A DNA stretch of 64,000 bases from NCBI GenBank assembly GCA_013152545.1, contig JAADGF010000105.1:27950-91949 (forward strand), given 5' to 3'. Of this stretch, positions 3,678 through 60,649 are shown piece by piece; the stretch's first letter is position 1; every line of letters starts with the position of its first letter. This DNA comes from Gammaproteobacteria bacterium. GTDB lineage: Bacteria; Pseudomonadota; Gammaproteobacteria; SZUA-152. The notes under the pieces were generated by a model, which worked only from the letters and a program-made list of their open reading frames with translations, searched no databases and was not told where the DNA came from. A program made the translations under genes and the position numbers.

Positions 3678-4217
3678 TCACCAGCTTATGTAGGCATAAC
3701 CTTGTTCTTGCAACACCATCAAATCCGCCGCACCCACATCGACTATTTTTACAGAATCCCGTATGTTTTTTTTCGACCAACCTAATGCTTTCAGGGTATT
3801 ACCACAGGCATGAAATTCCACACCATATTGCAATAAACTGGTAACACGTTCGCGAACGTCATTATTTACCGGACGCCCAGGCTTTTTTGCCAAAATATGA
3901 ATACCCGGCCCGATACCAACAACGACAATATGAATATTATCACCATAGTACCGCAGCATAGCCCCCACGGAAGATAGGACCGCGTTATGGTAAGTGTTAT
4001 CCGCTCTATTAAATTGATAAACAACATTATGATCGGTCGGATCGCCAGGGAATCGCAGTTCATCATCACTGGCATCTCTCACAGGCACTGCATCGGCAGC
4101 CTCTACCCCCTTGGAACGGGCGAACACCAAACCGCTGCCAGCTAATAAACCACCTAACCATCTGCGTCGAGTATGATCAGAAGGGGCATTGAAGAGTTTA
4201 GGTAGTTTCAGTCTCAA
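3678..4217 (-). CDS. Tat-signal periplasmic protein, DsrE/DsrF-like family (putative)
   Basis: 179 aa; twin-arginine motif TRRRWLGGLLAGSGLVFA followed by a domain resembling the DsrE/YchN fold. Only a TTG start is available and the Shine-Dalgarno is weak. Confidence 0.6.
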   Translation of the reverse strand: MRLKLPKLFNAPSDHTRRRWLGGLLAGSGLVFARSKGVEAADAVPVRDASDDELRFPGDPTDHNVVYQFNRADNTYHNAVLSSVGAMLRYYGDNIHIVVVGIGPGIHILAKKPGRPVNNDVRERVTSLLQYGVEFHACGNTLKALGWSKKNIRDSVKIVDVGAADLMVLQEQGYAYISW

Positions 4218-12179: not shown

Positions 12180-13856
12180 ATGATTAACCATATTCAGATT
12201 CGAAATTTTGCCATTGTCGATCAATTGGAGCTTCTCCTCAGTTCAGGCATGACGGTGTTAACGGGTGAAACCGGTGCTGGCAAATCCATATTGTTCGATG
12301 CCTTAAACCTCGCCTTAGGCGGGCGAGCGGAAAGTGGCATTATTCGGCACGGCACGAATCGAGCAGAAATTACCGTCAATTTTGATTTATCCAGATCACC
12401 ATCCGTTAAACAGTGGATGATCGACAACGCCCTTGATGACAACAACGACTGCCTGATTCGGCGAATCGCCACGACCGATGGGCGCTCAAAGGGCTTTATT
12501 AACGGTCAGGCGGTACCGATGCAATCGTTACGCGAATTAGGTGAGCAATTGGTGGATATTCAAGGCCAACATGCACACCAATCTTTATTAAAACAAGACA
12601 TGCAGCGCCAGGCCTTGGATGATTTCGCAGGCCATCAACGCTTGCATCTTGAAACCAAACAACACTATCAACGACTCAAAATATTACGAGAGCAGCAAAC
12701 ATTATTAAAGCAATCCAAAAATGAGCGTGCGTCACGAATCGAACTGCTTTCATATCAAACCCAAGAATTGGAGGATTTGTGCCTCAAAGAAAATGAATTT
12801 GCCGCCTTGGAAGAAGAACACTCACGACTGGCGCATCTAACACAAATTGAAGAAGGATGCAAACATGCTCTTTTCACATTAACTGACGCCGAAGAACAAT
12901 CCGTTACGCAGCAATTAAATAGCGTAATGCAACAACTCGACGTGTTGCAACAATTCGACATTAACCTGCAAGCCATTAGTCAAATGCTCAACGAAAGCTT
13001 AATACAGACTCAAGAGGCAAGCAACGAATTACGTCATTATCTAGGCGATCTTGACATGAACCCAAAACGAATGAACGAAGTCGACGAACGCCTCGGCTTA
13101 ATTCATGATTTATCCCGAAAACACCGAATTAACCCCAAAGAATTAACAACACTGTATAATGAATTAACCAAAGAACTCGCAAGCCTGCTGCAAGCCAATG
13201 ACCAATCCGATTCACTGGATGCCAAAATTACAGAGGCTGAAAAAAACTACTTTGCCTGTGCAAAAAAATTATCCATCAGCCGTCAATCAGCCGCTAAGCG
13301 CTTACAGCAAAAAGTGACTGCTAATTTACAGCAATTAGGCATGAAAACAGGGCAATTTAACGTTACACTGCACCTGCAAGAAGATATCTCGATCAACGGT
13401 TTGGAACGCGTGGAGTTTTTAGTGACAATGAACCCGGGCCAACCACTTAAGCCCTTAAACAAAGTAGCATCCGGTGGCGAGTTATCCCGAATCAGTTTAG
13501 CGATTCAAGTCATTATTGCCGCTACAGGACGTATACCAACGTTACTTTTTGATGAAGTTGACGTTGGTATCGGCGGCGGCACCGCCGAAATCGTAGGACG
13601 CATGCTACGTGATTTAAGCCGCGAACGGCAAGTAATATGTGTTACCCATCAACCTCAGGTCGCAGCACTCGGTCATCAACATTTACAAGTGAATAAACTT
13701 GCCTCGAAAAACACCACCAAAGCCCACGTTAATATACTCAATGAATCACAACGCGCTGATGAAATCGCCCGCATGCTAGGTGGCATAGAAATCACAGAGC
13801 AGACACTGTCCCATGCAAAAGAAATGATAAACCGCTCGCAGTCAGAGCCTGTTTAG
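12180..13856 (+). CDS. recN: DNA repair protein RecN
   Basis: 558 aa; Walker A GETGAGKS, coiled-coil middle, C-terminal signature and Walker B. Confidence 0.96.
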   Translation: MINHIQIRNFAIVDQLELLLSSGMTVLTGETGAGKSILFDALNLALGGRAESGIIRHGTNRAEITVNFDLSRSPSVKQWMIDNALDDNNDCLIRRIATTDGRSKGFINGQAVPMQSLRELGEQLVDIQGQHAHQSLLKQDMQRQALDDFAGHQRLHLETKQHYQRLKILREQQTLLKQSKNERASRIELLSYQTQELEDLCLKENEFAALEEEHSRLAHLTQIEEGCKHALFTLTDAEEQSVTQQLNSVMQQLDVLQQFDINLQAISQMLNESLIQTQEASNELRHYLGDLDMNPKRMNEVDERLGLIHDLSRKHRINPKELTTLYNELTKELASLLQANDQSDSLDAKITEAEKNYFACAKKLSISRQSAAKRLQQKVTANLQQLGMKTGQFNVTLHLQEDISINGLERVEFLVTMNPGQPLKPLNKVASGGELSRISLAIQVIIAATGRIPTLLFDEVDVGIGGGTAEIVGRMLRDLSRERQVICVTHQPQVAALGHQHLQVNKLASKNTTKAHVNILNESQRADEIARMLGGIEITEQTLSHAKEMINRSQSEPV

Positions 13857-44348: not shown

Positions 44349-45788
44349 TTTGGCTCACTTTGCCTGTTTAAAAGTTCTTGTTTGGTGTGTTGCCTGAGAA
44401 TATTGCAACTCCAATTTAGATTAGCTACTTTGTGCCTGGAAAACCTGCCAGACTTAAACAAAACATACGTAGTAAATCATTTTTATACTGCCCAAACCAC
44501 CCGCTCGACTACCTACCCTACTACCTACTCGCAAGCACTCTCAACAAGTACTCCCAAGAAGTACTCTCACTCACTACCGATTTGAAATTCAATTCTATCG
44601 TGCCAAAAAAGCTCATGCACCGCCCACAATATCCATGCATTAAGTAAACACAAGATAAAATAAAGAGGAGAGGCAGAATAAGCAACCAAGCCCGCGATTA
44701 ACCCATTTTTTATAACTATTTTTAGAAACAGGCCACTTTGTTTGCCTTAAATAATCGAAAAATCTGACCTTAATCGGCACTTTGCTTTGCTCTATGCCAG
44801 TCAATACCTCCCCTGGCAATCCCAAACAGCAATTCCAGCCACCAGTCCGGCATCGGGCGCTGCTTCGCCATTAAATAGATAAACGTTCAAAAATACTGCT
44901 AAGTACTCAATTCGTCAAGCCTTTAGGTTTAATTAACTACAATTCCAGGCAAATTGCTCATTTGACCTCAAATTCCGGTGCACCATCACGTGCAAAAGGT
45001 GCCGTCTACGCTTCCCCTGGATAACCATGACTGTATAGGCTCATTGCAAAATAGGTTTTCTCACATCCTGGTTTGCGTTATTTCCCCCTGACGGCTTTGC
45101 TGCTGTCGCGCTCGATTAGCCTTGGCATAGACCACAGTGTGAAGACTCGTCAACCATTCTGCATATGCCATGCAATACGACTACTGGTTAGTAACCATCA
45201 TTAGAGCAAGCAACATGGGGTAAACCAAGGATTGGGGCAACTTGTGGTTCAGAGCCTTAATTGAAAGTGAAGACACAAACATCAACAGGCTCTGGTATGC
45301 CATGGTACTTTAGGGACAGGTAACAAAAAATCATACTATGAAGCCCCTGCCCTACCGGGCATTGAATCTTTGCAAAACACCCGCATATAAATCAAAACTA
45401 ACGATATAAAACCCTATTGCTATTTGATATTGCCTGATTTACCACTACATTTAAGCGTGTAGAGGCTAATGCGTCAGCCCCCTCAAGAGTTATAGCCATT
45501 GTCCGATAAACTGATCAGATAGCTGGACGTATACAAGCGCGATTATCCAGTGGTAAAATTAACGTCGTTGGTTATTGAGGTACCATGTCGCGTTAGCTAG
45601 ATATATTTAAGCAACATCGGAATTATTCGCGTGTTGTTAGGTCAGAATGTCATACTGCATCGCATGAGGCGATTAGTGTGTTTCAATAAACGTAGTTAGC
45701 GCAAACCTGGTTGTAAATGACGCACGAACCGCACTTTTTACACATGGAAGAGGTGTGTTTGAGCAGGGTATTTTAGGGGGCAGTGCTA

Positions 45789-46109
45789 ATGTTAAACTTA
45801 TCTACGGAAGCTGTGAAAAAAATCATTATCGAAGGTATCACCGAAAGCGGAAGCAAATTTCGCCCAAGTGATTGGGCTGAAAGAATGAGTGGCGCCTTGT
45901 CCACGTTTGGGCCTGATCATCGCATCCAATATTCTCCTATGCTACAACCGCTAACACTTAACGGGGTAAAATGTGTTTCTGTGGACCCCAATCTGCGCAA
46001 AGCTTACCCTGAAATGTTTGCCTATATTATGCGTTGGGTAGAATTGAACCGTCTTAAGATCGTCGAAGTGGACGAAGAAGATGCTGTAAGCTCGAAAGCA
46101 GCTGGTTAA
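45789..46109 (+). CDS. small conserved hypothetical protein (DUF-like, about 106 aa)
   Basis: The ATG at 45789 has an AGGGGG Shine-Dalgarno (the track ORF starts 2 codons earlier at a GTG at 45783); ...KFRPSDWAERMSGALSTFGPDHRIQYSPML... resembles a widespread small proteobacterial family of unknown function. Confidence 0.6.
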   Translation: MLNLSTEAVKKIIIEGITESGSKFRPSDWAERMSGALSTFGPDHRIQYSPMLQPLTLNGVKCVSVDPNLRKAYPEMFAYIMRWVELNRLKIVEVDEEDAVSSKAAG

Positions 46110-46525
46110 TACCGCTATTATCCACCCGTATTCTACCTGTGTTGGACAATTCACTCAGCCGCCACACTTGTCGTGGCATGGCGTGTTTGTTTGCAACGCA
46201 GGTGACGGGTGCAAATCATCTATCCCATATCTCGATATCAAAGTGGCAGCACCTGCAACACGACTTCGCTGCGAGCAGCAGAGAATAGACTCACAAAAAA
46301 ACCTTTATAATCATTATGTTATAAAATAAAGTAAGTTGTGGTAAGAATGAGATACAGGCAATTCAATCAATTTGCGTAACGACTCAACCTGATTTTTAAA
46401 TGTTCAGCAACGGCTCTCACCTTACCGACCAAACGTTAGGAAGCAGACTTGCCAGAACGCTCCTACGGCCAACGTATCGCAAACGCTTTAAACGAAACAA
46501 GCAGCTAATTTCTATGTTTGGTGAA

Positions 46526-46581
46526 AAATAGACTCAAAATGGCGTTCCCTCGCGACGGCTGCTAATTATCGGACAGGCTCC
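46526..46581 (+). mobile_element. family-2 MITE, partial copy (right half only), overlapping the 3' end of the response-regulator gene
   Basis: gactcaaaatggcgttccctcgcgacggctgctaattatcggacaggctcc matches the right arm of copy 2. It supplies the last four codons and the stop (EPVR*) of the regulator. Confidence 0.7.
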
Positions 46582-49988: not shown

Positions 49989-50525
49989 GGGGATCTTCGA
50001 CAAACCGTAGAAGGAATTTTAAATCGCCTGCGTGTTCAAGATATTGATTTTGAATACCAGCACATTATCATTCGTAATGGAAAAAGCCTCAAAGACCGAG
50101 TGGTGCCACTGCCAACAAGTTTGATGGCGCCATTAAATGATCGAGGTGAAACATACCTGCCTAATGCGCTCTCAATCAAGTATCCAAAAGCCGCTAAAGA
50201 GTGGAAATGGCAATACGTTTTTCCAAGCGACCGACTCTCTGTTGGTCCTCGTTCGAATGAAGGTGCGACGCCACCCCACCATATCCATGAAAATGGGCTG
50301 CAAAAACCAATCAAAAAAGCATCCGATAAAACAGAGTTAATAAAACGGGTCCATTGCCATGCATTGCGTCACAGTTTCTTCGCGACGCATTTACTGAAAT
50401 CAGGTTATGACATACGCACCGTACAAGGGTTGCTTGGCCATGCCGATGTTTCAACGACGATGATATACACTCACGTAGTAAATAAAGGTGGATGCGGAGT
50501 AATCGTCCCTTTGGATAGCTTATAG
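49989..50525 (+). pseudogene. intI: integron-type tyrosine integrase (IntI) remnant: C-terminal about 178 aa only, 5' half missing
   Basis: ...[32 protein letters not shown]...[25 protein letters not shown]...[45 protein letters not shown] aligns with IntI1 from about residue 160 to the end, including the IntI-specific extra segment. The open frame begins at 49908 after a stop and has no N-terminal domain. Confidence 0.8.
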
Positions 50526-54659: not shown

Positions 54660-55370
54660 ATAGCTACAATTTGGCACCCGGCGTTAGTCATCTAAGCCAC
54701 GCGAGAACTGCCTGCATCGACGCAATTGTGAGGTTCATCTTCGACAAAATTACGAAACATGCTGTCGGCCTACCGCCAAAACCAGCTCAAATGGCGCTAT
54801 GTCTTGGCTTACAGCCGATTTTCATCCAGCGAGAACATGAATTTTATCCATGATAATCTGAAAAAGCACTTCATTCTAGCGTTGAAAAGCAATCGCCTGG
54901 TGGCACTCAGTTTAGCGGACAAGCAACAAGGTCATTACGTTCGCATTGATGAATTGAAATGGTCAGAAAAGCCCGTTCGGGGATGAGTGAAAGGGCTGGA
55001 ATTTCCAGTGCTTTTACATCGCCAGGTCTTTACAAACAAAGATGAAAGAGCAAGCTTTACATCAAAGCGATTAGACAGGCTTTCGAGGAATTCCATATGT
55101 CAAATTCGCTGCGGGTAAAAATGACGCCGGCTTGACCCGCTATTTGGTTTCGCGTAAATTCTTGCTATTGCAATTTCGTTAATGAAGATTCTCGTCTACT
55201 GCACACATAATGCATTATGTGTGCGGGTAATGCGGGTAAAAAGAGCTAAACGTGAAAATACTGAGTGAACACAACCAAATGTGAACACAATAAGTATAAA
55301 GACGTATTCCATTTTTAAGGCTGTCCACCTAAAGCAGACGAAGAGACCGTCAATAAGACTGACGACAGAA
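54660..55370 (+). pseudogene. decayed transposase-like region (frame-broken ORF fragments), tentative
   Basis: Adjacent frames give ...YVRIDELKWSEKPVRG* then VKGLEFPVLLHRQVFTNKDERASF...; there is no intact ORF in 0.7 kb. This resembles a DDE-transposase C-terminus, but the family is not recognised. Confidence 0.35.
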
Positions 55371-55386
55371 ATAGGTGCCGCTTAAA

Positions 55387-56772
55387 ATGCCAAAATCACC
55401 CATGCGATCGACGATGCTACCAATGCTGGTGACGGATAGAGACCTCGCCTTATTGTTTGATATCCAGGATGTTACCATTAACAGAGAACTGCGTGAACTG
55501 TTAGCCAGATTGGGCGAAAGACCTAGCCGTATTAGTCATCAGGATTTACTGCCCGCCATAAAGCGACATATCGACGCCGAATCACTCACGATAGCGGATT
55601 ATCACACCTTTCAGCCCAGAGTCACCGACCCCTATCGTACCCTCGAACTACTGCACGCCCGCGATCCACATGTGCGTGATATTGGCTGGAATCGAAATCC
55701 AAGCCTGTATGCCACAACAATGGCGTTTGAAAAGCAGGAAGCCGACGCCAGCGGACGAGGGAAAGATGTTGTTGCAGAGAAGGCAGAGCAAGAAACCTTC
55801 GCGGCCGCTGAGACAAGCAACACCAGTATGGGCGCGGAGCAAGTAGGTATAGCAACCCTCACAGGGAAACGCCAGCAAAACTACCAGGAACGGAAACAGA
55901 TGGCCGCCAACGCCGGGAATACCCCGGCACAACAAGCCGCCGCAGCACGATTGCTTGATAATAATGATAATATTCTGCGTGCGGAATCGGCGGCTTATGT
56001 TTATAAAGTGGATGAGTTTAATCGGGGCCATATAAATGAACTCCCAGAAGCACCGACCGGGTTGAATCTGATTGACCCCAAAGAAATACCGGGGCTGGAG
56101 AATGCGACTTTTACCAGTAAAAAATCAGGCTTTGGTGCCGCCCTGTTTGAATCAGAAATTAATGGGGAAACCATGTTGGCCTACCGGGGTACCAACCCTG
56201 GTGTGACAGGCATGAAAGATGCGAAAACCAACCTTTTGCAAGGCATCGGCGGCGAAAGTGATCAATACGATCAGGCAATGGATTTGGCTGAACTAGCGAA
56301 TAAAACTTTAGAAGGAAATTTCGTCAATGTCGGCCACTCTCTGGGAGCGGGTCTGGCCTCCGCGGCGACAGCCGTGACGGGCATTAAAGGCTATACCTTC
56401 AACGCGGCAGGCCTGCATCCCGATACTGCCACCCGCAAAGGTGGCATGAACAATGATGCCGCCGCAAAATTGATACAGACCCGGGCCATTGAGGGTGAGG
56501 TGTTGACCACTGTACAACGCCATGGAAACAACGTCCTGAGTGGACTAGGCGCAGGGGGCGGCGCAGCCATGGCGGGGCTGGTGGGGGCAGGACTCGGCTA
56601 TCTGGCGAGCAAAGCATTGCCCGATATCCCCGAGGCAGTGGGCGAAATGAAGACCCTGCCCAGTGTCAAGGGCGGCAGCCCGATGGCGCGACACGGCATG
56701 GATCAGGTCATTGACGGCATTGAGGTGCAAAAGAAAGAGGATATTAAAACGCTCACCCAAAGTGCTGGGTAA
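55387..56772 (+). CDS. class-3 lipase-like (alpha/beta-hydrolase, GHSLGAG nucleophile elbow) putative phospholipase toxin/effector
   Basis: ATG at 55387 (AGGTG Shine-Dalgarno; the track ORF begins at a GTG at 55375). C-terminal domain ...MLAYRGTNPGVTGMKDAKTNL...VNVGHSLGAGLASAATAVTG...HPD... fits Lipase_3/DUF2974-like hydrolases. A glycine-zipper tail (GLGAGGGAAMAGLVGAGLGYLA) follows. No signal peptide. Confidence 0.8.
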   Translation: MPKSPMRSTMLPMLVTDRDLALLFDIQDVTINRELRELLARLGERPSRISHQDLLPAIKRHIDAESLTIADYHTFQPRVTDPYRTLELLHARDPHVRDIGWNRNPSLYATTMAFEKQEADASGRGKDVVAEKAEQETFAAAETSNTSMGAEQVGIATLTGKRQQNYQERKQMAANAGNTPAQQAAAARLLDNNDNILRAESAAYVYKVDEFNRGHINELPEAPTGLNLIDPKEIPGLENATFTSKKSGFGAALFESEINGETMLAYRGTNPGVTGMKDAKTNLLQGIGGESDQYDQAMDLAELANKTLEGNFVNVGHSLGAGLASAATAVTGIKGYTFNAAGLHPDTATRKGGMNNDAAAKLIQTRAIEGEVLTTVQRHGNNVLSGLGAGGGAAMAGLVGAGLGYLASKALPDIPEAVGEMKTLPSVKGGSPMARHGMDQVIDGIEVQKKEDIKTLTQSAG

Positions 56773-56777
56773 TCGAT

Positions 56778-57605
56778 ATGTTCAATTTTAAAAAACCATT
56801 GACGTTAACGACCAGCCTGCTTCTCGGGGTGCTGACCAGCTGCGGGCTCACAGGAAAAACCATGAAACTGACTGACTTTTTTAAACCCGAGATGGTTGAA
56901 TTGATTCGCGCCATCGAAAAAGACGACGAAGCCAAGGCCCGTGCTCTTATCGCGCAGGGCCTGTCACTGAATGTGCAGGGCGACGAAGGCATTACGCCGT
57001 TGTTCTGGTTAATGACACAAAAAAATAAAGCCGGGATGCGCCTGGCCATCAAGCTGGGGGCTGATCCAAATTTTGCCGACCCGAACGGGGACAGCCCGGT
57101 CGTTTTTGCAGCAGGCGCTAATGACGACGAATTGTTACTGATTCTGCTGGAAGGGGGGGGGAATCCCAATGCGGTGGATAGCGATGGCCACCCGGCGATA
57201 TTCGGCGCAATCGGTGGAGAACGTCTCGAACAGATCAAGATGTTGATGCGTTTTGGGGCAGATATTAATTTGACGGATCGATCAGGCCGTAACGGCGCCT
57301 TGTATGGAGCCGATATAAATCGATTCGAGATGGTGCATTATCTGATTGAGCAGGGTGTGGACTATGCTGTGCGTGACGCGACTCGCGGAGACATTGCGTG
57401 GAGTGTACATAATAAACTTTCCAAAAATTTACTCAGCCCCGAATACCCCGCCTACGGCTGGGCATTAAAAGTCAAACAGCAGTTGATTGATCTCGGGGTT
57501 AAATTCCCGCCACTCTCACCACGGGAAGTACGCTGGAAAGAAGGCAAACCGAATAAGTATGACATCAAGGCGCGTGAAAAAGAACGCCAGGAAAAGAAAC
57601 CCTAA
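56778..57605 (+). CDS. ankyrin-repeat lipoprotein (putative periplasmic immunity protein)
   Basis: Lipobox LLLGVLTSC followed by at least five ankyrin repeats (GITPLFWLM..., GDSPVVFAAG..., GHPAIFGAI..., GRNGALYGA...). Starts 5 nt after the lipase stop. Confidence 0.85.
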   Translation: MFNFKKPLTLTTSLLLGVLTSCGLTGKTMKLTDFFKPEMVELIRAIEKDDEAKARALIAQGLSLNVQGDEGITPLFWLMTQKNKAGMRLAIKLGADPNFADPNGDSPVVFAAGANDDELLLILLEGGGNPNAVDSDGHPAIFGAIGGERLEQIKMLMRFGADINLTDRSGRNGALYGADINRFEMVHYLIEQGVDYAVRDATRGDIAWSVHNKLSKNLLSPEYPAYGWALKVKQQLIDLGVKFPPLSPREVRWKEGKPNKYDIKAREKERQEKKP

Positions 57606-58168: not shown

Positions 58169-58259
58169 TGGCGGAGAGGCAGGGATTCGAACCCTGGGAG
58201 GGGATAAACCCTCAACGGTTTTCAAGACCGCCGCTTTCGACCACTCAGCCACCTCTTCC
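58169..58259 (-). tRNA. tRNA-Ser (anticodon UGA), class II with long variable arm
   Basis: Reverse complement GGAAGAGGTGGCTGAGTGGTCGAAAGCGGCGGTCTTGAAAACCGTTGAGGGTTTATCCCCTCCCAGGGTTCGAATCCCTGCCTCTCCGCCA. T-arm CAGGG-TTCGAAT-CCCTG; anticodon loop CTTGAAA. The acceptor stem needs a 1-nt bulge (extra A) on the 5' strand. Confidence 0.85.
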
Positions 58260-59362: not shown

Positions 59363-59989
59363 CTAAGACGACGGGCTTTCTTGTTTTTTATTTTCTTTAC
59401 GTTGTTGTAGCCCCAACACATCATTCACTACTCGATTTATCTTTTCGGCAATATCTGGCGCCTCAATATCGATCACCTGCTCCACCACCCACTTGCTATC
59501 GGTCTGTTTCATTCGCTCTGAAATGTTTAAGGCTAAATAACGGGTGAATTCGTAACTGGGCTTGTCATCTACAAAACCACATTCAGCATAGTTTGCCATG
59601 CGCTCATTCATTAAGCCAATAAACGCATCAACGTACTCGCCTTGCCCTAATAAGTCTGTTTTATTTTCCACCATCAAATCCACCAAGTACATTGCCGTAG
59701 CACTCATAAAACCGCTACGCTCCTCTTCAGAAAACAGGCTGTAAATAAGCCTGTCGGTGATATGCAGCTGGTAAATAACAAATTCACTAATCACGTTGAT
59801 GGTCTGGCTGTCTTCCTTGAAACGGTATCCTTCTTTTTCCATGCGCAAAAAGGCTTCTTTGGCCAGTTTCCAGATATTGATACCGATGACACTGGCCAGA
59901 TCTTGTAATTTTTTTGGGGCATTGGAGCCATGACGATTACGCTTTGAACGTTTTGACTTGTGCCATTTAGTTTTTAGCCTCACTGCCAT
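59363..59989 (-). CDS. hypothetical protein with Lys/Arg-rich N-terminus
   Basis: The ATG at 59989 has a GGAG Shine-Dalgarno (the track ORF starts at a TTG at 60010); MAVRLKTKWHKSKRSKRNRHG... then a roughly 180-aa acidic domain; no recognised family. Confidence 0.6.
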   Translation of the reverse strand: MAVRLKTKWHKSKRSKRNRHGSNAPKKLQDLASVIGINIWKLAKEAFLRMEKEGYRFKEDSQTINVISEFVIYQLHITDRLIYSLFSEEERSGFMSATAMYLVDLMVENKTDLLGQGEYVDAFIGLMNERMANYAECGFVDDKPSYEFTRYLALNISERMKQTDSKWVVEQVIDIEAPDIAEKINRVVNDVLGLQQRKENKKQESPSS

Positions 59990-60220
59990 CGCTGTAATCT
60001 CCAACGTCAATTACCCCGCCACAGGCACATCATCTGATTAAGGCATCTAGAAACATTTACGATTGAGAATAATTACAGCCAGTATAAACTAGAGATTGTG
60101 TCATCGATATACTCCTGATGCATTATCCTAAATTGTGGTTAATATTCAAGAACAACAACAAGACTGCAAAAAAACAATAGCCAGCGATAGAACGCCTATT
60201 TTTCACCTTGGAGTTAAGTC

Positions 60221-60649
60221 ATGAATGATAACGAATTTGAACTAAGCAGCGGCATTAATGCATTTGAAGCCAAAGATTTCACCCGCGCGATGCGGCTGTT
60301 ATCGCCTATCGCTGAACAGGGTAATGCCGAAGCGCAGTACCGCATGGGCATGATGTATCAAAACGGCCTGGGGAAGGTTAAAAATGATGAATATGCGGAA
60401 AAATACATGCGAGCAGCAGCTGATCAAGGTCACGCATACGCACAACATGGCCTAGGGATAATGTATTTATATGGTGAAGGTCTGGGAAAAGATGAAAAAC
60501 AGGCAGCGGAATGGTTTGTTAAAGCTGCCGAACAGGGCTTACCCGGCTCTCAAATGACCCTAGGCATGCTGTATGAAAAGGGTCAGGGCGTGGACAAAAA
60601 CGAGGTGGAAGCGAAACGCTGGTACAAGCGTGCTGAAAAACAACGCTGA
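60221..60649 (+). CDS. Sel1-repeat (TPR-like) protein
   Basis: 142 aa; three Sel1 repeats (AEAQYRMGMMYQNGLG..., AYAQHGLGIMYLYGEG..., PGSQMTLGMLYEKGQG...); GGAG Shine-Dalgarno; no signal peptide. Confidence 0.8.
   Translation: MNDNEFELSSGINAFEAKDFTRAMRLLSPIAEQGNAEAQYRMGMMYQNGLGKVKNDEYAEKYMRAAADQGHAYAQHGLGIMYLYGEGLGKDEKQAAEWFVKAAEQGLPGSQMTLGMLYEKGQGVDKNEVEAKRWYKRAEKQR

Follow-up and report, generated by a model that had tools for sequence, protein, structure and literature searches.

The locus described here occupies positions 55,387 to 57,605 of a 64-kb stretch of DNA from a gammaproteobacterial contig (JAADGF010000105.1; the whole 64-kb stretch is referred to below as the window), and consists of two adjacent genes on the plus strand. 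The first, tle, starts with an ATG at 55387, ends with a TAA stop codon at 56770-72, and codes for a 461-residue lipase; the second, tli, starts 5 nt after that stop and codes for a 275-residue ankyrin-repeat protein. Both open reading frames (ORFs) were found where a preliminary description, made from the sequence without database searches, had placed them. A GTG at 55375 is an alternative start of tle, which would extend the product to 465 residues; an in-frame TAG is located at 55372-74. The lipase is already present in databases as the hypothetical protein GXP08_15515, which is identical and is encoded on a 281-kb contig from an uncultured gammaproteobacterium. We conclude that the pair is probably a Tle6/Tli6-type antibacterial phospholipase effector with its immunity protein, carried on a small horizontally acquired cassette. 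The main elements of the locus are the following:

55387..56772, plus strand: tle, gene of a very likely Tle6-family phospholipase effector, 461 residues (ORF; PDB sequence and fold matches)
55387..55860, plus strand: N-terminal ORFan segment of Tle, residues 1-158, a presumed delivery or loading region with a disordered linker (no relatives)
55861..56769, plus strand: Tle's lipase (alpha/beta-hydrolase) domain, residues 159-461 (homology; fold model)
56778..57605, plus strand: tli, ankyrin-repeat lipoprotein gene, 275 residues, coding for the presumed immunity protein and activator (ORF; Pfam; match to 7UBZ_A)

In a phmmer search of PDB sequences, residues 160-456 of the window lipase matched residues 12-309 of a chain named 'T6SS lipase effector' (T6SS, type VI secretion system) from Enterobacter cloacae (7UBZ_B/9CYS; E=2.8e-24). 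These entries are structures of the complex of Tle (ECL_01553) and Tli (ECL_01554) from E. cloacae ATCC 13047 (bioRxiv 10.1101/2023.03.28.534661; PMC11470151), for which the name Tle6/Tli6 has been proposed (Jensen et al.; PMC11470151). An AlphaFold2 model of the window protein had a predicted local distance difference test score (pLDDT) above 90 for most of residues 150-461. Its top Foldseek match was 9CYS_A (E=7.5e-17; template modelling score, TM, 0.75), and the second-ranked matches, fungal feruloyl esterases and lipases (8e-6), were eleven orders of magnitude behind. The preliminary description had left about 250 N-terminal residues unassigned; the stretch without assignment is only ca. 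158 residues long, since residues 159-245 correspond to helices alpha1-alpha2 and can be aligned to the solved Tle domain.

Tli, in turn, matched the other chain of the same complex. The protein contains ankyrin repeats (Pfam Ank_2, E=2.7e-14), and its residues 29-246 are colinear with residues 3-227 of the 230-residue chain 7UBZ_A (E=5.8e-21, PDB sequence search), the only better scores being those of designed consensus ankyrins (DARPins), of ankyrin-1/2, and of a few further ankyrin proteins with long series of repeats. When the Tli model (mean pLDDT 92) was used in Foldseek, 7UBZ_A ranked first and 9CYS_I second, with about 700 further ankyrin structures behind them. Matches of Tli to Legionella Ank effectors in NCBIfam were rejected, as they scored about 40 bits against cutoffs of at least 600 and reflect generic ankyrin similarity. 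Because both window proteins match the two chains of one solved complex in sequence and in fold, the pair can be assigned to the Tle6/Tli6 family with high confidence. The idea of a Tle/Tli-type pair with an ankyrin immunity protein, put forward in the preliminary description, is thus borne out, but the pair is less novel than that description implied, the family having been described and named already (PMC11470151; bioRxiv 10.1101/2023.03.28.534661).

The lipase had also been described as carrying a Lipase_3/DUF2974-like domain. It is indeed an alpha/beta-hydrolase lipase, but neither Pfam match reaches its gathering threshold (Lipase_3, PF01764, 15.0 bits versus 22; Mbeg1-like/DUF2974, PF11187, 15.9 bits versus 21.1). 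A precomputed annotation assigns the protein to PF26363, 'Phospholipase-like', a newer Pfam model. An NCBIfam match to the 'SA1320 family' was rejected, being partial, at 34.5 bits versus a cutoff of 230, and due to generic similarity in the hydrolase core. Pfam and NCBIfam searches at E<=1 placed the window lipase in none of the families Tle1-Tle5, which are the T6SS lipase families of Russell et al. 2013; E. cloacae Tle also lies outside Tle1-5 (PMC11470151). In the literature, Tle6 was found as a T6SS name in PMC11470151 alone, and otherwise refers to mammalian TLE6.

The catalytic triad of E. cloacae Tle consists of Ser341, Glu393, and His448, and the enzyme is activated by a methylglyoxal-derived MODIC crosslink between Arg180 and Lys461, with Glu458 as a helper residue (PMC11470151). 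The corresponding residues of the window lipase were located by HMMER alignment to 7UBZ_B and checked in family alignments of 11 and 41 sequences. These residues and a further feature of the domain, all on the plus strand, are:

55891..55893, plus strand: Arg169, putative helix alpha1 partner of the MODIC crosslink (E. cloacae Arg180; alignment, codon confirmed, at least 90% conserved in 41 sequences)
56338..56340, plus strand: Ser318, predicted catalytic nucleophile in GHSLG (E. cloacae Ser341; alignment, invariant)
56497..56499, plus strand: Glu371, predicted catalytic acid (E. cloacae Glu393; alignment, invariant or at least 90% conserved)
56533..56622, plus strand: Gly-rich hydrophobic insert, approximately residues 383-412 (hydropathy, motifs, alignment gaps)
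56692..56694, plus strand: His436, predicted catalytic base (E. cloacae His448; alignment, invariant)
56722..56733, plus strand: Glu446 to Lys449 in the C-terminal helix, putative MODIC hydrogen-bonding residue and crosslink partner (E. cloacae Glu458 and Lys461; alignment, both at least 90% conserved)

As judged by alignment, the Ser318/Glu371/His436 triad is intact. The nucleophile elbow noticed in the preliminary description is present, while the acid is Glu, not the Asp of the Ser-Asp-His triad considered there. The putative crosslink trio Arg169/Lys449/Glu446 is likewise found as residues at the aligned positions. The Arg, Lys, and Glu residues of this methylglyoxal (advanced glycation end-product) crosslink, established experimentally in one protein, are therefore kept in relatives with 28-29% identity to it and in 41 family members, which supports the suggestion of the original authors that glycation-dependent activation is a property of the whole family.

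What had been taken for a 'Gly-zipper tail' is an internal insert (approximately residues 383-412) located between catalytic Glu371 and His436. The insert contains the highest-scoring Kyte-Doolittle 19-mer of the protein and seven overlapping GxxxG/A/S motifs, is modelled as a helix (pLDDT 63-71), stands opposite gaps in 7UBZ_B, and is kept in most relatives. A role in membrane interaction is plausible.

Two elements at the beginning of tli bear on where its product may be located:

56778..56843, plus strand: predicted lipoprotein signal peptide, with the lipobox LTSC (Cys22) at its end (sequence)
56852..56864, plus strand: internal Shine-Dalgarno-like AGGA (56852-55) and Met29 ATG (56862-64), a candidate start of cytosolic Tli (sequence)

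Tli is a predicted lipoprotein: the lipobox L19-T20-S21-C22, noticed earlier together with the ankyrin repeats, is preceded by a hydrophobic helix (residues 5-21) and is found in most full-length Tli homologs. Met29 lies seven residues past Cys22, with the AGGA at 6-nt spacing upstream of its codon. E. cloacae Tli is a lipoprotein of which internal Met codons also yield a cytosolic form, and Tle is not activated unless Tli is present (PMC11470151). The 11 nt ahead of the Met29 ATG, ACAGGAAAAAC, do not differ between the window and four independent relatives (five loci), despite a synonymous divergence (dS) of about 1 substitution per site between the loci compared (the window, L001, and L002), and Met29 itself is at least 90% conserved among 40 homologs, out to Dickeya and Photobacterium. 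In the NCBI annotation, tli (GXP08_15520, 247 residues) starts from Met29, so that the signal peptide and the lipobox are omitted; many database homologs have likewise been annotated from an internal Met by gene callers. Conservation of the internal start is the signature one would expect if the dual-localisation mechanism of E. cloacae Tli were general, and a near-invariant start with a Shine-Dalgarno element kept at synonymous sites supports a dual periplasmic and cytosolic role of Tli across the family. In the first ankyrin gene of an array found in one relative (L006:11636-12466; also in P0123 and P0136), the lipobox Cys is replaced by Gly (LLVSGG and not LxSCG), and this copy may be unlipidated and exist only in a soluble or cytosolic form.

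The ratio of nonsynonymous to synonymous divergence (dN/dS) was 0.11-0.16 for the lipase domain and 0.13-0.14 for tli. Both genes are therefore under purifying selection.

Relatives of the lipase were surveyed among its 119 best homologs. The N-terminus is a PAAR domain in 76 of them, and DUF4150, VgrG, or Rhs in others; the remainder carry at least ten further mutually unrelated types of N-domain, which brings the number of types to at least 14. All of these homologs cover about 65% of the window lipase, that is, its lipase domain only, which is 45-60% identical to the PAAR-, DUF4150-, VgrG-, and Rhs-fused lipases. The presence of these four domains in homologs ties the toxin domain to T6SS delivery. 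Homologs of Tli are found in the same genera as PAAR-fused lipases, namely Dickeya, Pectobacterium, Aeromonas, and Brenneria, and in every relative examined the ankyrin gene directly follows the lipase gene, provided that the contig extends far enough.

The nearest relatives are uncharacterised lipase-ankyrin pairs of hydrothermal-vent metagenomes (P0002, P0003, P0005, P0009, and P0012; loci L001-L006), among which is one metagenome-assembled genome (MAG) of Thiotrichaceae. Their lipase domains are 74-81%, and their Tli proteins 75-85%, identical to those of the window. These relatives share an N-domain of their own, of ca. 240 residues, followed by a Pro/Glu-rich linker; the window protein has neither. 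Homology to relatives, at both the protein and the DNA level, starts sharply at 55860-55867 (residue 159-161) and ends no more than about 50 nt past the tli stop codon. Since homology is limited to this span, the shared unit is a cassette of ca. 1.75 kb that comprises the lipase domain and tli, and the two parts have diverged in parallel (76-78% identity for the lipase and 76-80% for Tli relative to L001/L002). Recombination of the cassette occurs at an abrupt boundary where the lipase domain begins, and N-terminal modules of at least 14 unrelated kinds are joined to it; one of these, that of the window, is without a relative among 1.84 billion proteins. An N-domain unrelated to those of other members does not exclude membership of the toxin domain in a family that tolerates unrelated N-domains.

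Traces of rearrangement were observed in several relatives. In L006 (12683-13879), a full lipase-ankyrin pair is followed by the degenerate 3' part of a lipase gene (12808-13083) and then by another complete gene of an ankyrin lipoprotein, 83% identical to window Tli; L006 is an array of orphan modules like those of Rhs and contact-dependent inhibition (CDI) loci. In P0009 (an ORF called at 610 residues; L002:2349-2480), the first ca. 45 residues, including 'IKDAIETQKKEDINSLS', are what is left of another lipase copy's C-terminal helix, placed in frame ahead of the real N-domain. In the isolate genome of Thalassomonas actiniarum (L010:9670-12296; CP059735.1), downstream of a non-PAAR homolog come an ankyrin gene, two 159-residue ORFs, and another ankyrin gene; the homolog has a SymE-toxin gene on its upstream side and no T6SS gene within 8 kb. 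Such fragments, second ankyrin genes, and relics are hallmarks of cassette exchange in polymorphic toxins. The window lipase is not itself an orphan 3' toxin fragment: it is complete, has an ATG with a ribosome-binding site, and no full-length copy lies upstream of it. A genuine orphan fragment, for comparison, is that of L006 (12808-13849).

The neighbourhoods of seven relatives without PAAR were read (five from vent metagenomes, one from Thalassomonas actiniarum, and one from Rheinheimera sp. NSM). Each lipase was located amid unrelated housekeeping genes, each at a different locus, and no T6SS gene was found within the 8-10 kb read around them, where the contig reaches that far. Orphan placement is therefore normal for the non-PAAR part of the family. 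In L002 (1813-5033) and in L003, the lipase and ankyrin genes, together with a 136-residue ORF, have landed within the succinate dehydrogenase operon, between sdhA and sdhB-sdhE-cptA, which is an unusual place for a toxin cassette.

Such placement, within the sdh operon in one case, could also mean that the non-PAAR clade does without a T6SS, being exported by a type I secretion system (T1SS), by vesicles, by lysis, or by a novel pathway that depends on the N-domain, or else persisting as a selfish, addiction-like cassette. Several of the hosts appear to belong to vent sulfur-oxidiser lineages (MAG names Thiotrichaceae and Thiomicrorhabdus), and the same lipase domain also occurs on CdiA proteins, which use a type V secretion system (T5SS; PMC11470151; bioRxiv 10.1101/2023.03.28.534661). 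Pfam and NCBIfam scans of the window lipase, on the other hand, revealed no T1SS, T5SS, or other export feature, nor a signal peptide, whose absence had been noted before, and a lipoprotein immunity protein that faces the periplasm would point to attack from outside and not to an intracellular toxin-antitoxin system. Orphan cargo effectors distant from T6SS clusters are common. E. cloacae Tle, moreover, has a non-PAAR N-domain and yet is T6SS-dependent (PMC11470151; bioRxiv 10.1101/2023.03.28.534661). We therefore regard export or maintenance independent of a T6SS as doubtful. The corresponding general view, that the vent non-PAAR Tle6-like cassettes, including the window copy, form a mobile toxin-immunity module of ca. 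1.8 kb that inserts into housekeeping loci and is not T6SS cargo, is a long shot in our estimation, and so little is to be staked on its corollary, an undescribed route of export or maintenance set by the hypervariable N-terminal region. T6SS delivery remains the reading we prefer.

The N-terminal segment of the window lipase was analysed separately. Its frame has no stop in 158 codons, against 6-9 stops in the other five frames, and only 0.0005 (0.05%) of shuffles keep it open; the GC content at third codon positions (GC3) is 0.513, as in the rest of the islet, and an AGGTG ribosome-binding-type site is located 9 nt ahead of the tle ATG. The segment looks translated. Its model contains a few helices in residues 17-68 (pLDDT ca. 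57-63), and the rest, including an acidic Ala-rich linker, is below 50. No Pfam match was obtained at E<=1 with residues 1-244, and tblastn found no frameshifted remnant of the N-domain of vent relatives upstream of tle, so that decay of such a domain was rejected as the origin of the segment. A likeness to ORF6N or helix-turn-helix proteins, seen by eye, was dropped because neither Pfam nor the exhaustive search described below supported it. We read the segment as a lineage-specific module that was acquired with, or created at, the recombination junction.

A different account of the same segment is that the cassette is stranded and its toxin can no longer be delivered, recombination or insertion sequence (IS) activity having swapped the loading domain, in which case whatever is read in frame upstream of residue 159 would be filler with no function. 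The sharp start of homology at the junction, with shared DNA confined to the lipase domain and tli, fits this account, as do an ORFan N-terminus with a weak coding score and low pLDDT, and a transposase remnant just upstream. Displacement, moreover, is seen in the family itself, in the L006 fragment with its second ankyrin gene and in the relic start of P0009. Yet 158 codons are open, as in only about 0.05% of shuffles, and a ribosome-binding site stands at their start; all catalytic and crosslink residues are intact, and genuine orphan fragments in relatives are truncated and degenerate while the window domain is complete. Mutually unrelated N-domains are, besides, usual in the family. We consider loss of delivery unlikely, and just as unlikely the related proposal that the cassette is kept mainly for Tli immunity against Tle6 toxins of neighbours, or as a reservoir for cassette exchange. 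The interpretation as a functional effector-immunity pair is retained below.

The islet that contains the pair is flanked by two further elements:

54776..55048, plus strand: remnant of an IS4/ISAba11-group transposase gene, on the left side of the islet (blastn)
58169..58258, minus strand: tRNA-Ser(UGA) (ARAGORN; Rfam tRNA, 54.6 bits)

The decayed transposase-like stretch mentioned in the preliminary description is real. Over ca. 270 nt (a complete gene is normally longer than 1 kb), it is 66-68% identical at the DNA level to annotated IS4-family transposase genes of two cyanobacterial plasmids (blastn); Pfam gave no match for the short ORFs within it. The tRNA-Ser gene was also confirmed; its 3' end points towards the islet, and it has its own terminator. 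This 3' end is a possible integration landmark, and a search for att-like direct repeats of it found only short repeats at chance level. Promoter and terminator scans gave counts not above those of shuffled controls, the tRNA terminator alone being convincing. When the neighbouring YbbP-like permease was used to look for a syntenic empty site, only distant matches in Acidobacteria (26-28% identity) were obtained. The GC3 of the islet is 0.51-0.56, compared to 0.443 +/- 0.031 (maximum 0.495) in 26 neighbouring host genes. Because it exceeds the values of all these genes, the pair is compositionally foreign, in line with the islet-like context proposed earlier.

Pfam was used to scan 40 further ORFs, which make up almost every ORF of 120 residues or more in the window. 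Housekeeping genes found include carA, dapB, dnaK/J-grpE-hrcA, recN, fur, glycogen genes, purA, hflXKC, miaA, leuA, ilvC/ilvB-like genes, a YbbA/YbbP-type ATP-binding cassette (ABC) transporter, and a TesA-like GDSL esterase; two signalling proteins, a response regulator and a hybrid histidine kinase, are also encoded, and three of the 40 ORFs had no Pfam match. A truncated integrase gene (a 141-residue ORF, 50100-50525, plus strand) that covers only positions 88-168 of the 172 of the phage-integrase profile (E=1e-18) is located ca. 5 kb from the islet, with the ABC-transporter genes in between. A region of ca. 2.2 kb (44350-46560), between the acetolactate-synthase-like and response-regulator genes, contains no ORF of at least 120 residues and no Rfam match, only a 108-residue ORF (45783-46109). 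Just past the tRNA-Ser gene and a Bax1-I/YccA-like gene, at 59363-60649, a 215-residue ORF on the minus strand (59363-60010) without a Pfam match adjoins a 142-residue ORF (60221-60649) that resembles Sel1/TPR-type repeats by eye. A DsrE/DsrF-like protein gene (3678-4217, minus strand) lies amid housekeeping genes; together with the vent relatives and the Thiotrichaceae and Thiomicrorhabdus MAG names, it hints that the host is a sulfur-oxidising gammaproteobacterium.

The lack of a nearby secretion-system gene and a fold akin to that of fungal secreted lipases and feruloyl esterases would both suit a lipase that serves housekeeping or nutrition, has an ankyrin protein as its chaperone, and plays no part in interbacterial antagonism. 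We consider this highly improbable. The best match of the pair is a demonstrated antibacterial effector-immunity complex, most homologs of the lipase are fused to PAAR, VgrG, or Rhs, and foreign composition, patchy and non-syntenic placement between genomes, and arrays of immunity genes are all out of keeping with a housekeeping function.

If the window pair works as its E. cloacae counterpart does, the following sequence of events can be proposed. In the cytoplasm, Tle would be synthesised as an alpha/beta-hydrolase that is poorly folded and inactive. Cytosolic Tli, translated from Met29, would bind it and hold it in a crosslink-ready conformation, in which endogenous methylglyoxal would crosslink Arg169 of the first helix to Lys449 of the last helix, with the help of Glu446. 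The MODIC link would tie the ends of the lipase domain together and so yield a competent enzyme. A T6SS whose genes lie elsewhere in the genome would then, most likely, deliver Tle to neighbouring bacteria, with the unique 158-residue N-terminal region acting as the loading or adaptor part. In the periplasm of the target, the Ser318/Glu371/His436 triad would hydrolyse membrane phospholipids (phospholipase A1/A2 activity). Full-length Tli would leave the cytoplasm and, once it carries lipid at Cys22, be anchored in the envelope; there, by sequestering the lipase's lid helix, it would shield the producing cell and its kin. Enzymatic activity, crosslinking, neutralisation, and export route are here inferred by homology with the E. 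cloacae proteins, and we favour, short of confidence, the view that the full mechanism, including T6SS export, applies to the window copy.

Several observations weigh against this interpretation. For residues 1-158, an exhaustive phmmer search against 1.84 billion representative proteins retrieved nothing but the query, and comparison by phmmer and hhalign with the at least 14 N-domain types of the 119 closest homologs, a set in which the N-domain of E. cloacae Tle is not included, was negative (hhalign probability <=0.3%). The coding score of the segment is weakly positive, at 0.07 bits per codon versus 0.27 for the lipase domain, and its structure is modelled at low confidence (pLDDT 30-63). 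With an IS remnant ca. 340 nt upstream, the N-terminus could be a product of rearrangement. None of the 40 ORFs scanned in the 64-kb window codes for a T6SS component, an adaptor, or a PAAR, VgrG, or Hcp protein, in agreement with what had been noted before. The one family member that has been characterised lacks the Gly-rich insert, and mechanistic details may differ accordingly. Finally, dN/dS averages over long branches and does not prove that the window copy has kept its function.

Within an effector family that was defined recently, the pair is an ordinary member and will not surprise a specialist. Its modest value to those who study the family lies in the conserved crosslink residues, in the conserved internal Tli start, and in the sharp cassette junction with its ORFan N-terminus. 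Should the source organism lack a T6SS, the last of these would become a point of interest.

Compared with known systems, the pair is closest to Tle-Tli of E. cloacae, which is the best PDB fold match of both window proteins. In both cases the effector consists of a variable N-terminal part, a linker, and a C-terminal alpha/beta-hydrolase with a Ser-Glu-His triad and with Arg (alpha1), Lys (alpha13), and Glu at the crosslink positions, and the gene of an ankyrin lipoprotein, with an internal Met start just past the signal peptide, lies directly downstream. The two pairs differ in that identity to the window proteins is only ca. 28-29%, that E. cloacae Tle has a shorter polar segment where the window lipase has its Gly-rich insert of ca. 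30 residues, and that the E. cloacae pair is located within the T6SS-1 locus beside vgrG2, whereas the window pair forms an isolated islet. Slp of Serratia marcescens is, according to PMC11470151, homologous to E. cloacae Tle and a proposed member of the Tle6 group. The fungal class-3 lipases and feruloyl esterases, such as Rhizomucor miehei lipase and Aspergillus niger FaeA, share the alpha/beta-hydrolase subfold and the lid helix (second-tier Foldseek matches, E ca. 1e-5 to 1e-3), but are secreted, nutritional, disulfide-stabilised enzymes without an immunity partner. The PAAR-, DUF4150-, VgrG-, and Rhs-fused lipases of Dickeya, Pectobacterium, Aeromonas, Shewanella, and Vibrio are 48-57% identical to the window lipase over residues 159-461, have the same triad and crosslink residues, and have ankyrin partners that are 45-51% identical; unlike the window protein, however, they begin with a domain that is explicitly a T6SS spike or tip. 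The lipase-ankyrin pairs from vents share with the window pair the ca. 1.75-kb cassette, the Gly-rich insert, the internal Tli start, and the orphan placement.

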